Source: Eledone cirrhosa (lineage: Eukaryota). Taken from it: a stretch of DNA of 64,000 nt. Below, piece by piece: positions 300-60,381 of the stretch. The translations under genes and the position numbers were made by a program. Position 1 is the first letter of the stretch. Every line of letters starts with the position of its first letter. The stretch covers positions 92,814,001 through 92,878,000 of the forward strand of contig OZ024745.1 in the NCBI GenBank assembly GCA_964016885.1. Direction: 5' to 3'. Under the pieces are notes generated by a model. The model searched no databases, was not told where the DNA came from, and worked only from the letters and a program-made list of their open reading frames with translations.

Positions 300-1656
300 A
301 AAATAGAAAGATTTGAATGGATACAGTTTAGTTGAAAGGAATTTATTGACACGTGTTTCTATAACAGTTACATAACCTAAAACAGCTGATATCTACAAAC
401 TTTTAGTTATGCAGACATTCAATATTTCAATGTTATTATTTACTGTCATTTCATCAGAATAATATTACTGAGGACCTATTTAGTTTTTATAGAGAATATT
501 AGGAGGGAGGGGTGAAGTTGTTAGAAGAATAGTTGAAGGAGTGGTTTTTCGATAGCAGTGAGTAATTAGATTCCCATCTGTTGTTTTGACATTTTTTATA
601 GAATATATTATTGGTTATTTTTCTAAATCTATAGAAGGATTAGAGATAGTAAAGATATGCGTGGTTGGTTTTGTGTTTGCACTTAATTAACATTCAGACT
701 TAAATTTTTCTTTCAAGTGTACGCATACCTTCACCCACGCATTCACACACAAATATATTTGCACACCTCTACAAAATACATATACTCACAATTCACATAT
801 TCATACTTACATATATATACACATGCATACACATATATATACACACATGTATTCATGTACATACTTACGCGCTCATGTGTATACATTTTCATACTCAACT
901 TATCTTTATATACACACGTATAGACACACACATATATACATACTTACTCTAGTCCATGTGTACACACATACACATCTATATACACATATATACATACATA
1001 TACATATATATATATATATATATATATATACACATATATATACATATATATATACATATATATATATAAGCACTTTAATACATGAATACACTTACATCTA
1101 ACTATACACATCAAACATATATATATATTTACTTATTTATATACATTTTCACATATATATACATACTTATGGACGTTTTTAGACACATTCATTATCGCAT
1201 ATTTGCACCTATTCTCATCGGCATATCTTTCCATTATTAGTGTGGTAATTTAAGGTTATTAATATATGTTGAGAAGAGATTGTTTTTATATTTTTCTAAC
1301 TAGATTAAGGTTTATATAGTTGGGGGATGTCCCTCTTTTATGTAATATTCGGCTTGTAGATGGGAATCTAATTACTCACTGCCACCAAGAATTCTCACTG
1401 CTATCAAAAAACCACTCCTTCAACTATTCTTCTAACAACTTCACCCCTCCCTCCTAATATTCTCTATAAAAACTAAATAGGTCCTCAGTAATATTATTCT
1501 GATGAAATGACAGTAAATAATAACATTGAAATATTGAATGTCTGCATAACTAAAAGTTTGTAGATAGCAGCTGTTTTAGGTTATGTAACTGTTATAGAAA
1601 CACGTGTCAATAAATTCCTTTCAACTAAACTGTATCCATTCAAATCTTTCTATTTT
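300..1656. mobile_element. Fold-back element with ~280-bp inverted arms (300-579 / 1358-1656) between (TA)n tracts; probable Penelope-like pLTR remnant
   Basis: aaaatagaaagatttgaatgg...attagattcccatct is the near-exact reverse complement of agatgggaatctaat...caaatctttctatttt; both arms contain a hammerhead-like core. Confidence 0.75.
1495..1540 (+). ncRNA. Degenerate type I hammerhead ribozyme motif (mirror copy on - strand at 416-461)
   Basis: CTGATGA-aatg..catt-GAAATATT; stem II aatg/catt and palindromic stem III present, stem I weak. Confidence 0.45.
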
Positions 1657-2205
1657 TCTCCGGATTACTTTTGGAACTACAACTGGAACCGTCGAGCAAA
1701 CTCTACGTGAGCTGATAATCTACTGCGTGTAATATTTATATTACAACACAACGGAAAATACTGTATATATATTAAAATATATATATATATATATATATAT
1801 TAAAATATATATATATATATATATTAAAATATATATATATATATATATATATTAAAATATATATATATATATATATTAAAATATATATATATATATATTA
1901 TAATATATATATATTATATATATTATAATATATATATATTATATATATTAAAATATATATATTATAATATATATATATTATATATATTAAAATATATATA
2001 TATATATATATTATAATATATATATATTATATATATTATATATATATTATATATATTATAATATATATATATTATATATATTATAATATATATATATATA
2101 TATTATAATATATATATATATATTATATATATATATATATTATAATATATATATATATTATATATTATAATATATATATATATATATATTATATATAATA
2201 TATAT

Positions 2206-2432
2206 GTCATTCTCGATAAAAGCACTGGATATGTAGTCCTGATGATTTCTAACGAGAATGAAACGCGTAGATTACTTCCCTTGCTTTTATCGAGAATCTA
2301 ATTGTAATACGTGACGTATTCTATTCTATAGCGATTAGGTCTTCAAAATGTTTATTATAAACATACAGAATATTTTCGAATATTCTATGTCTATATTCAC
2401 ATATATATCGCTATTTCAGAGCATTTATTCCA
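2206..2432 (+). mobile_element. Small non-coding hammerhead-bearing element in (TA)n with 16-bp inverted repeat (2209-2224 / 2282-2297)
   Basis: attctcgataaaagca...tgcttttatcgagaat brackets the ribozyme; TA arrays on both sides. Confidence 0.7.
2233..2275 (+). ncRNA. Minimal type I hammerhead ribozyme
   Basis: gtagtc-CTGATGA-tttct aacg agaat-GAAACGCGTA-gattac: stem I gtagtc/gattac (one G-U), stem II ttct/agaa, palindromic stem III ACGCGT, GUA cleavage triplet. Confidence 0.9.
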
Positions 2433-2648
2433 ATATATATATATATATTATAATATATATATATATATATTATATATAATATATATATATATATATAATA
2501 TATATATATATTATATATATATATTATAATATATATATATAATATATATATATATTATAATATATATACATATAATATATATATATATAATATATATATA
2601 TATATATAATATATATATATATATATAATATATATATATATTATATAT

Positions 2649-3893
2649 GAGTCAAAAGGACTTAAAATTAACCTGGCTAAGACCAAAGTTCTAGTTTGTA
2701 GGAAAGAAAACAAGGCGGCGGTCCCTTCTGGGAAATGGGCGTGCTCGGTATGTAGGAAAGGCGTAGGTAGAAACTCCATCTTATGTCCTAAATGCAAAGT
2801 ATGGGTGCATAAAAGATGTAGTGGGATCACAGGTAAGCTAACTAAGAACATAGACTTTACATGTGGCCGGTGTTCTGGTGCAATAAGTAGCAGCAAGTGC
2901 CCACAAAATACTAGCTCTTTCAATTGCGCAGAGGGTTCTATAGAAATAGTGGACAGCTTCCGTTACCTGGGCGATAAAATCAGCAGTGGGGGAGGGTGCT
3001 CTGAAAGTACTGTAGCTAGAGTCAGAACTGGTTGGAAAAAGTTCAGAGAGCTTATACCACTATTAGCTGCTAAAGGGTTCTCCCTAAAAATGAAAGGCAG
3101 GTTGTACGATGCTTGCATACGAACAGCAATGTTGCATGGTAGTGAGACCTGGGCATTGTGTGCAGAGGATATACGCAGACTAGAGAGGAACGAAGCTTGC
3201 ATGCTCCGCTGGATGTGTAACAGTAATATACGTGAACGGCAAAGCATAAACGAACTAAGGAAAAAATTAGAGATAAGAGGGATCAGATGTTGTTTACTCG
3301 AGAGAAGGCTGCGTTGGTATGGACACGTGATGCGCATGAAAGTCGATAGCTGTATTACAAAGTGCAGGGCAATAAAGATAGACGGTAGCCACGGAATAGG
3401 CAGACCTAGAAAAACATGGGATGAGCTGATAAACTCCGACCTCACACACTTACACCTCTCCAAGACAATGTCACTGGACCGTGACCTTTGGCGGTACTCA
3501 GTAACAGAGAAGACCCGCCTTGCCAGTAGGCATCTCTAACAAAATACACCCCTCCCGCCACCACCCCCACCCCATCCACACCACCCCGTTCTATGTAAAG
3601 TTATGTTGGTGCCGCGCCATCCAGGCCGAAACAAATGAGATCGTGTAAGTGTCACGACAAAAAACACACAGTCCACGCTGTAATGTGGCCGTGTAGGCAA
3701 CACGGTAAAAACCTCCCAGACCCACACTGTAAATGTGGTTGGTGTTAGGAAGGGCATCCAACTGTAGAAAACCTGCCAGACAGTCCTATGCGAGCAAGAC
3801 AATCACTCTTGCCTCAAGTGGGACTACCCCCGTCCAAACCCATGCAAGCGTGGAACACGGACGTTAAACGTTGATGATGATGATGATGATGAT
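2649..3893 (+). mobile_element. 5'-truncated RTE-clade LINE, subfamily A (PHD-like finger, RT C-terminal domain, 3'UTR, (GAT)n tail)
   Basis: ORF 2805-3539 with FRYLG, MLHGSETW, RRLRWYGHVMR, GRPRKTW; ends aaacgttgatgatgatg. Confidence 0.93.
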
Positions 3894-4074
3894 ATATTAT
3901 AATATATATATATAATATATATATATATTATAATATATATATATATAATATATATATATATAATATATATATATATATATTATAAAATATAATATTATAT
4001 ATATTATAATGTATATATATATTATAATATATATATATTATATATATTATAATATATATATATATATATATTAT

Positions 4075-58872: not shown

Positions 58873-58893
58873 CATACCCAGATATTGATACCC

Positions 58894-58944
58894 AGATTCC
58901 TGATGATTTCTAATGAATGAAACAGCTCTAGTCCTGTAGAATCT
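58894..58944 (+). ncRNA. Type I hammerhead ribozyme with full hairpin stem III, in a ~160-bp island (58873-59030) within (TA)n
   Basis: agattc-CTGATGA-tttc taat gaat-GAAACAG ctctagtc CTGTA-gaatct: 6-bp stem I, 4-bp stem III, GUA site. Confidence 0.9.
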
Positions 58945-59461
58945 CTTCTATATTAAAACTATTATACTCTGCTATGTATTGAGTACCTTACTTACTGTGG
59001 TTACCTCCGATTCAACCCGGAATAACGTACATATATATATATATATACACATATATATATATATATACACATATATATATATATATACATATATATATAT
59101 ATATACATATATATATATATATACACATATATATATATATATACATATATATATATATATACATATATATATATATATACATGTATATATATATATATAT
59201 ATATATATACATATATATATATATATACATATATATATATACATATATATATACATATACATATATATATATACATATATATATATATATACATATATAT
59301 ATATATATACATATATATATATACATATATATATATACATATATATATATATATACATATATATATATACATATATATATATATATACATATATATATAT
59401 ATATACATATATATATATATATATATACATATATATATATATATATATATATATATATATA

Positions 59462-59717
59462 CAATATATTAATAAATGGAAACTATATTTATAAAACCAT
59501 ATTTATTTTATTATACATATTTCAAGGGCAACCAAGGCAAATTATGGTGAAAGCGCACCATAATTTACCTTGGTTGCCCTTGAAATATGTATAATAAAAT
59601 AAATATGGTTTTATAAATATAGTTTCCATTTATTAATATATTGCATATTTACTCCATTACCCTGTTGAGTGCTTTATATCAGTTATAACAAATTTTTAAG
59701 CTTGTTGAATCCCAACA
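59462..59717. mobile_element. Fold-back element (88-bp near-perfect hairpin 59462-59643), same family as 42189-42570; hammerhead truncated in the core
   Basis: Arms meet at atggtg-aaagcg-caccat; only TGA of CTGATGA remains. Confidence 0.88.
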
Positions 59718-59959
59718 AATTAAATATAACCTCTGCATATATATATATATATATATATATATATATATATATATATATATATATATATATATAGAAATTT
59801 CGTATTTCTAAAGAAATATGGTTTTAGGAAGCCATAGCTATGCAAACACGGGGGTGGGTCGGGGGTGGGGGGCTAACGGCCTCTGGTGGTGTCCAGCAGA
59901 AGCAAGGGGGACAACCGTCTATGCATTTCAGGCTTGACTGGCCTTCATCACGATGGTCC

Positions 59960-60381
59960 CTCCCACCGCTTGTTATATATAAAAACAATGAGTTAGAGAC
60001 TTTGTTGGTATGTAATTAACAGAGTTATGTTCATAACAGATATGAAGCACTCGACAGCTAAATTTATCTGGAGTATTATAATAATAATAATAATAATAAT
60101 AGTAATAAATGGAGTATATATCACTATAGCATCATAATTTATTTCGTTATATATATTTCAGGGATACTAAGTTATAGAATGCCTTCTTCAGACAAAATAC
60201 AATATTAGATGTATAAAATGTGACATACTCATAAGAGAGATCACATGTCACATTTTATACATCTAATATTGTATTTTGTCTGAAGGCATTCTATAACTTA
60301 GTATCCCTGAAATATATATAACGAAATAAATTATGATGCTATAGTGATATATACTCCATTTATTACTATTATTATTATTAT
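59960..60381. mobile_element. Fold-back hammerhead element; arms ~60085-60226 / 60245-60381
   Basis: Inverted arms read directly; - strand tail tactcc...gtcgagtgcttcatatctgttat resembles tails at 42485-42520 and 59650-59690. Confidence 0.85.
60140..60199 (-). ncRNA. Type I hammerhead ribozyme (CUGAAGA core); + strand mirror copy 60272-60328 has a 3-nt core deletion
   Basis: - strand: tattttgt-CTGAAGA-aggcattcta taact tagtatccct-GAAATATATATA-acgaaata. Confidence 0.88.

Follow-up and report, generated by a model that had tools for sequence, protein, structure and literature searches.

A stretch of 64,000 nucleotides from the 3.0-Gb genome of the octopus Eledone cirrhosa (assembly GCA_964016885.1, contig OZ024745.1, positions 92,814,001 to 92,878,000 of the forward strand; the window) is scattered with hammerhead ribozyme motifs that lie beside (TA)n repeats, often as head-to-head inverted copies. 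Which elements carry these motifs, and how do they come to be inserted in this form? Two questions of the literature are addressed by such a locus, namely which enzyme spreads animal retrozymes, and how inverted head-to-head insertions of Penelope-like elements (PLEs), tailed at one end, are formed. An earlier sequence-only reading had seen here a population of non-autonomous elements mobilised by the PLE at 5703-6620. We consider it probable that most of the motifs are 5'-truncated PLE ends in TA repeats, and that the copy at 2233 belongs to a 310-nt protein-free repeat, here called A310, that is likely copied by a PLE-type enzyme. Hammerheads from truncated PLEs in TA repeats are largely known, one octopus element included; the anatomy of the A310 insertions is the new part.

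Hammerhead motifs in the window and in the genome

With a GC content of 32%, the window abounds in TA microsatellites and in pieces of long and short interspersed elements (LINEs and SINEs). A structure descriptor for type I hammerheads (CUGANGA, GAAA and NUH core, stems I-III) finds six canonical motifs in it (C3 positions in Table 1), against a mean of 0.005 and a maximum of 1 in 200 local dinucleotide shuffles of the window. These are the main type I motifs of the sequence-only reading, found at its places and far above the count in shuffled AT-rich sequence, and its four predicted cleavage positions (Table 1) are reproduced exactly. A relaxed core adds 42382(+), with U3, 4230(-), with A4, and 34418, the last of which is probably due to chance; this brings the total to nine motifs, against 0.13 in shuffles. 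At the weaker sites of that reading the core and stem II are present, but the descriptor is not satisfied in the window: 457(-)/1499(+) are without the downstream cleavage strand, 8260 and 23584 are A4-type copies, 29215 lacks stem I, and 35188 is decayed, with relatives that fit the minimal form. Rfam hammerhead families are absent among the best 150 of 161 window matches at E<=1, and the Rfam miRNA matches in the window are to TA repeats and palindromes. For most isolated motifs the minimum-energy fold is no better than in shuffles; the region 2206-2300 is the exception (z -5.7).

The genome-wide rate was taken from 40 evenly spaced 10-kb stretches (400 kb), scanned with a slightly wider descriptor. 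They contain 18 motifs (~45 per Mb), against 0.3 in shuffles; 17 of the 18 lie within 200 nt of a (TA)6 run, as do 16% of random positions, and 10 have an inverted partner. As random stretches show such motifs too, with TA runs and inverted partners, the window is a fairly ordinary sample of a genome-wide feature. The population described earlier as dense is thus enriched relative to shuffles, but at 6 motifs in 64 kb the window has only about twice the rate of the random sample. Rough extrapolation from the 18 motifs in 400 kb suggests that such motifs number, to an order of magnitude, 100,000 in the 3-Gb genome.

The (TA)n boundaries reported for the window are borne out, with a TA run within 20 nt of 18 of 21 element ends. 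The head-to-head arrangement holds in full for six elements (306-1762, 8034-8335, 22486-22804, 42189-42569, 59462-59736 and 59979-60381) and in part for 4072-4769, but the copies at 2233, 23584, 29211, 35184 and 58894 are single arms. Not all elements keep to the proposed size of 150-450 bp; exceptions are 306-1762 (1.46 kb), 4072-5043 (where two families are joined) and 28594-29340.

Across all fetched loci, 18 motif families recur with differing stems, although the pairing there is imposed by the descriptor. In eight hand-picked hammerheads of the family C lineage, both sides have changed in 8 of 17 pairs, and pairing is kept in 96% of cells, where slid controls give 36-57%; in these sequences the stems covary around a fixed core, as the earlier check on covariation had asked. 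The families are not as unrelated as had been claimed, since hammerhead flanks are common to B and C, and a 28-nt core (89%), the only sequence that A310 shares with the A' family, is common to the copies at 2233 and 58894.

Penelope-like families behind the motifs

For each family the 25-30 best genome matches were fetched, a set biased to long copies, and the upstream sequence was read. An open reading frame (ORF) of the family's own, encoding a GIY-YIG endonuclease, ends 0.70-1.16 kb upstream in 5/29 loci of B, 19/29 of D and 10/29 of E. Family C has an untranslated region (UTR) of ~1.6 kb and no ORF of its own within 1.5 kb in any of 29 loci; of four loci that were extended, two have 1.9 kb of shared upstream sequence that includes a GIY-YIG ORF. 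Another ORF, upstream of family C at locus L092, was rejected as C's own, as it belongs to a nested family E element. Because longer copies have their own GIY-YIG ORF upstream, B, C, D and E are, by this gene content, the 5'-truncated 3' ends of separate autonomous PLEs of the Hydra clade.

The assignment of B, C, D, E and PLE-1 (the family of 5703-6620) to the Hydra clade rests on protein motifs and insertion traits. In the examined parts of the ORFs the motifs are RW[KR] or RWI, DKT, YRDD, CxCX5C, CxxC..E and CxH, with RLRWR or RLRWI in place of RWK. An earlier label, Neptune, was dropped for these PLEs, as the motifs fit the Hydra clade of Craig et al. (2021). The order of reverse transcriptase (RT), then C-terminal GIY-YIG, upstream of the hammerhead is that of B, C, D, E and PLE-1, with the RT seen for PLE-1, B and E, and only the endonuclease end of the ORF examined for C and D. 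The endonucleases of B, D and E are 33-53% identical to that of PLE-1, whose likeness to the printed Hydra-1_Obim protein was judged by eye. Pfam gives no informative family for the window PLE fragment, nor any family for ORF pieces of the full PLE-1 or of B, PDB gives no match, and an Atlas search gives clusters of GIY-YIG/RT type, as a lead only.

The remaining ends are older or more divergent. Family F has remains of an RT or endonuclease of Penelope/Poseidon type upstream in 7/24 loci, and by these remains is an older PLE end of that type; family G has only weak upstream matches (27-30%) in 2/24 loci and is probably a PLE 3' end. The hammerhead cores vary between families. Family E has A at core position 4 in 48/48 matched copies, and family C has U for C at core position 3, with G8 kept, in 14/55 matched copies, possibly a spreading, inactive variant. 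Families D and F do not fit type I criteria. A scan for a permuted order (core, cleavage strand, GAAA) matched only family D (39 matches), with a possible 7-bp stem I and, within loop II, a GUA triplet (a fit with a post hoc probability of 0.003-0.006 by chance), but with a stem III of only 2 bp and linkers of 3 and 1 nt. The type-CSG hammerhead order is documented by two sequences that were tested (Eckert et al. 2023, PMC10085705), and family D can be drawn in that way, as core, cleavage strand and GAAA, departing from it in its short stem III and its linkers. Divergent relatives of D for covariation were not found among the contigs compared. That D is a type-CSG permuted hammerhead in an animal retrotransposon is doubtful; a minimal type I form in which C3 is used in stem I was also considered.

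The body of family A' (the copy at 58894) is ~600 nt long. Thirty loci were selected through its 5' part, and they have a TG/TA tract upstream, and beyond this tract no common sequence or same-strand endonuclease; the core lies 425-465 nt downstream of the 5' part in 16/30 loci. By these features A' is a non-autonomous element of ~600 nt. Its dispersed copies are monomers or fold-backs, and not the tandem arrays of a retrozyme. A satellite at ~30.58-30.87 Mb of contig C28 (genome handle G000; L287 and L288) consists of ~300 kb of diverged 78-bp units with an A' hammerhead in each, in one orientation in the two stretches read, and is the only tandem A' derivative seen.

In the sequence-only reading all of these families are non-autonomous and moved in trans by the PLE at 5703-6620. 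PLE-1 is a young family. Its tandem unit measures 3,543 bp, many of the 150 matches scored are open over 784-795 codons, and it inserts in TA with the same two-end pattern as the listed families. However, B, C, D and E are linked to ORFs of their own and not to the 5703-6620 element, and PLE-1 has at its terminus a different hammerhead, with U3-A8 in 36/52 matched copies and C3 or A3 with A8 in 16/52. A terminal comparison gave no significant sequence common to PLE-1 and the listed families, and the window copy of PLE-1 lacks the terminal repeat and hammerhead altogether. The linkage to their own ORFs refutes trans-mobilisation for B, C, D and E, and for the whole set it is scarcely credible. 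What stands of the claim is that insertion of PLE type into (TA)n holds for all families, and that two of them, those of the copies at 2233 and 58894, are non-autonomous. PLE-1 may be a helper, though of A310 and A' alone.

Two fixed ends in the families tested

In each of seven families tested (B, C, D, E, A', PLE-1 and A310) there are two fixed 3' ends, 26-110 nt apart, and in the first six of these the end positions are bimodal. Of 125 head-to-head pairs in the fetched pool, 107 have one long and one short end, 2 are short+short, 1 is long+long and 15 are unclassified, so that long+short accounts for 107/110 classifiable pairs; a SINE within the tail accounts for one of the short+short pairs. 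Each of the six full fold-backs of the window likewise has one long and one short end. The arms meet at their truncated 5' ends, with short microhomology.

The A310 repeat and its two-armed insertions

A pattern search of the genome gives 4,219 exact matches to a 35-mer of the A310 hammerhead and 1,245 junctions of its short end with TA, with no match to the reversed control in either case. The 50 stretches read contain arrays with a period of 310, in arms of up to 19 units. The unit is non-coding, with one type I hammerhead, and forms dispersed tandem arrays; by structure, A310 would be a young retrozyme of the type without long terminal repeats (non-LTR). Near-identical A310 sequence is present in sequencing runs from four organisms, and 340-nt one-loop A310 contigs in two runs (X1 and X2) are as compatible with a tandem array as with a circle.

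Loci were collected through the hammerhead 35-mer (10 loci) and through 41 short ends in 40 stretches, taken in the order of the junction list. After one duplicate, three loci with the far end outside the stretch and seven single-armed loci were set aside, and one complex junction was scored by hand, 40 loci were scorable. In all 40, two diverging arms end at unit positions 139 and 163-172 (numbered from the predicted cleavage site), and both arm ends adjoin TA-type repeats. Because the short end sits in a UA-rich patch that matches the target, the true short-end junction lies at 130-139. The insertion ends name exact, testable start positions on the 310-nt RNA.

The arms span 0.24-19 units (about 0.2 at least). 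At their junctions an overlap of 2 nt or more is found in 20/32 simple cases, against 18% for random joins, with 7 junctions with longer inserts or overlaps excluded. Of 96 arms, not one starts in the first 10 nt past the predicted cleavage site. A post hoc count shows the 36 nt round the ribozyme (unit positions 287-310 and 1-12) to be free of arm 5' ends, where ~11 of the 96 would be expected if ends were uniform.

Older tandem elements (L143:4873-5209, L181, L255:3118-3618, L060, L279, L309, L327 and L356) have the A310 start-site region at 73-89% identity; they often end at the two A310 positions, and their hammerhead is different or its core decayed.

A model of twin priming and its alternatives

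As the A310 insertion ends are of the same kind as PLE ends, a Penelope-type enzyme likely copies A310 too. In the proposed mechanism the PLE enzyme would cut both strands of a (TA)n tract, and one complementary DNA (cDNA) would be primed from each side, at two start sites of one RNA, the short start pairing with the target through the UA-rich patch. Annealed at their 3' ends, each of the two cDNAs would then serve as template for the second strand of the other. For A310 the template would likely be a monomer circle, formed by the predicted hammerhead cleavage of tandem transcripts and ligation, and read round repeatedly into multimer arms, with one of the young Hydra-clade PLEs as the likely helper. 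To the scheme in full, with one (TA)n cut, two cDNAs, two fixed sites and joining by microhomology, and with an octopus retrozyme that rides as an RNA circle and leaves multimers on both arms, we give an even chance. If it is true, twin priming explains both the head-to-head structure of PLEs and second-strand synthesis, and A310 is genomic evidence for PLE mobilisation of animal retrozymes through circles. The counts place constraints on both literature questions, in the strict short+long pairing, in the fact that either arm may be the longer, and in the private variants shared between arms.

The inverted arm might instead come from fold-back self-priming of a single cDNA, or from an antisense template, with units added later by unequal crossing-over. 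Self-priming has been proposed for head-to-head palindromes of rotifer PLEs (Arkhipova 2013) and local amplification for retrozymes (Li et al. 2026, 10.64898/2026.07.22.740005), a few A310 arrays have variants repeated across several units, and the lengths of the two arms are weakly correlated (rho 0.31, p 0.05). However, which arm is the longer varies between loci (the short-end arm in 18, the long-end arm in 22), and the two differ by more than one unit in 29/40; this counts against self-priming because a fold-back copy cannot outrun its template. Each arm also stops at its own fixed site, and an origin by self-priming is very unlikely.

The variants within arrays bear on the form of the template. 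Twenty haplotypes are fixed within loci in the 50 stretches, and at 10 loci a private variant is present in every unit of both arms. With one haplotype per insertion, the template would usually have been one A310 unit, most simply a circle. An alternative keeps PLE mobilisation and twin priming, with an uncleaved linear multimer transcript of a donor array as the template and circles, if any, as by-products. Two loci, L246 and L256, each have a unit-specific variant shared in the same register by both arms, a pattern that suits a linear multimer template and not a monomer circle; the other unit-specific variants are in one arm only (69) or shared out of register (1). In vitro, a PLE with a mutated hammerhead is still able to insert (Frangieh et al. 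2024, PMC11167929), and the lack of 5' run-off at the A310 cleavage site fits a multimer template too. Against it stand the private variants and fixed haplotypes, each of which needs a one-unit bottleneck that multimer copying does not give, and we regard a multimer template as rather unlikely.

Several points nevertheless weigh against twin priming on a circle. The autonomous families were copied through an intact hammerhead, so that uncleaved RNA is a proven template, and retrozyme dimers were cleaved in only 1/9 tested (Li et al. 2026). None of the listed runs with A310 is on record as RNA. Among the families fetched, A310 has no terminal sequence in common with B, C, D, E or PLE-1 ends, and its tail is 26-33 nt, against 80-110 nt in the PLE families. 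Variants present in two or three units at L226, L227 and L250 point to some growth after insertion, and polishing of the assembly could have smoothed the A310 arrays. To these can be added the three exceptional and 15 unclassified PLE pairs, and the way in which loci were chosen, with 31 of the 40 A310 loci selected through the short end and 21 family C pairs through the long end.

Relation to known systems

In the Hydra clade, (TA)n insertion goes with canonical hammerheads, and Hydra-1_Obim of Octopus bimaculoides has both (Craig et al. 2021, PMC8557442); for the giant squid, 235 hammerhead-1 matches were reported with its genome. The claim that such elements had not been described in cephalopods is thus wrong for PLE hammerheads. 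In full-text searches, with subscription papers and most supplements outside, neither a cephalopod retrozyme, nor two-armed retrozyme insertions, nor a strict short+long rule was found.

The PLEs of the window resemble the Hydra-clade elements (PMC8557442) in the C-terminal GIY-YIG, CxCX5C linker, DKT, RWK-type motif and (TA)n insertion, and also in a hammerhead near the 3' end, an inverted 5'-truncated copy and a tail that is often at one end only. They differ from the Hydra PLEs as published in the available part of that paper in having at least five distinct families, tails of 80-110 nt instead of 30-40, near-strict short+long pairing, and variant cores (U3-A8, fixed A4). The hammerhead listed for Hydra-1_Obim in that part is absent from the 18 recurrent motif families here.

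Opposite-strand hammerhead pairs 100-700 bp apart, truncated PLEs and thousands of dispersed motifs have been described, together with a U3-A8 variant core from Schistosoma PLEs (Cervera and de la Pena 2014, PMC4209133). The motifs here are like these minimal hammerheads of truncated PLEs in their dispersal, opposite-strand pairs and U3-A8 core. The minimal forms were described for Schistosoma and other animals, whereas most motifs here keep a stem III of 3-5 bp; the string 'mollus' is absent from the main text of that paper. Inverted PLE copies with a tail often at one end are also known (Arkhipova 2013).

The Anolis Poseidon PLE cuts and extends both strands in vitro from two internal start sites (Frangieh et al. 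2024, PMC11167929). It is like the present case in its AT-rich target, in the cutting and extension of both strands, and in two start sites that delimit the tail. Poseidon belongs to a different clade, however, and the available part of that paper reports no strand difference in start site, no one-short-one-long pairing and no retrozyme template.

Metazoan retrozymes are cleaved and circularised, and PLEs have been proposed as their helpers (Cervera and de la Pena 2020, PMC7229834; Li et al. 2026). A310 is like the metazoan non-LTR retrozymes in its non-coding, AT-rich, 310-nt tandem unit, which has a single type I hammerhead whose stem III is short and palindromic, and unlike them in its two diverging arms in TA with short and long ends of PLE type. 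Circular RNA and cleavage were shown for the metazoan retrozymes, whereas A310 is known here from DNA sequence alone. The word 'inverted' is absent from the main text of PMC7229834 and is in the text of Li et al. (2026) only within a reference title; cephalopods are unmentioned in both of these texts.

Other features of the window

Coordinates of the elements are collected in Table 1. The E and B fold-backs at 4076-5043 are fused, with both inner arms shortened, probably by a deletion between nested insertions. At 25055-25384 (-) there is a decayed piece of the endonuclease ORF of family E, and at 63549-63666 (-) a PLE-1-like tail fragment.

Table 1. Hammerhead-bearing and Penelope-like features of the window, numbered from its first nucleotide.
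Feature	Position	Strand	Remarks
Family D, head-to-head 3' ends of young Hydra-clade PLE	306..1762	both	left arm (-) short, right arm (+) with ~110-nt tail
Family D hammerhead-like cores	457, 1499	-, +	downstream cleavage strand lacking
A310, single 5'-truncated arm, long end	2205..2434	+	unit 246-310 then 1-165; 100% identical to unit
A310 copy hammerhead	C3 2239	+	predicted cleavage after 2269
Family E, Hydra-clade PLE 3' end	4072..4769	-	long end 4076; A4 variant core 4230
Family E, cut-off inverted arm	4614-4769		fused to family B element at 4770
Family B, Hydra-clade PLE 3' end	4770..5043	+	~85-nt tail, 22-nt fold-back remnant; C3 4855, predicted cleavage after 4909
PLE-1, broken Hydra-clade copy	5701..7171	+	RT/GIY-YIG fragment 5701-6617; inverted 3' UTR piece 6638-7171
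Family E fold-back	8034..8335	both	left, inverted tail, long end; right, sense arm, short end
Family B fold-back	22486..22804	both	left arm long, right arm short; C3 22711 (+), predicted cleavage after 22765
Family E end, old, decayed, single arm	23560..23857	-	73-77% identity
Family F, old Penelope/Poseidon-type PLE 3' end	28594..29340	+	core and stem II at 29215; stem I lacking
Family G, old element end, minimal hammerhead decayed in window copy	35080..35302	+	
Family C fold-back, Hydra-clade PLE end	42189..42569	both	left short (C3 42288, -); right long, ~90-nt tail (U3 core 42382)
Family A', 3' fragment of ~600-nt non-autonomous element, long end	58877..59028	+	C3 58900, predicted cleavage after 58938
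C-related fold-back	59462..59736	both	left short, right long; core lost at junction
C-related fold-back	59979..60381	both	left long (C3 60191, -); right short, 3-nt deletion in core

Palindromes or inverted termini at 18201-18653, 21222-21328 and 12848-13719 have no hammerhead match in the descriptor scans, and the last of these flanks the remnant of a mariner-type transposase. Two SINE copies with tRNA-like heads are inverted around a TA run at 25405-26122, and more are found at 50164-50505 and 60390-60717.

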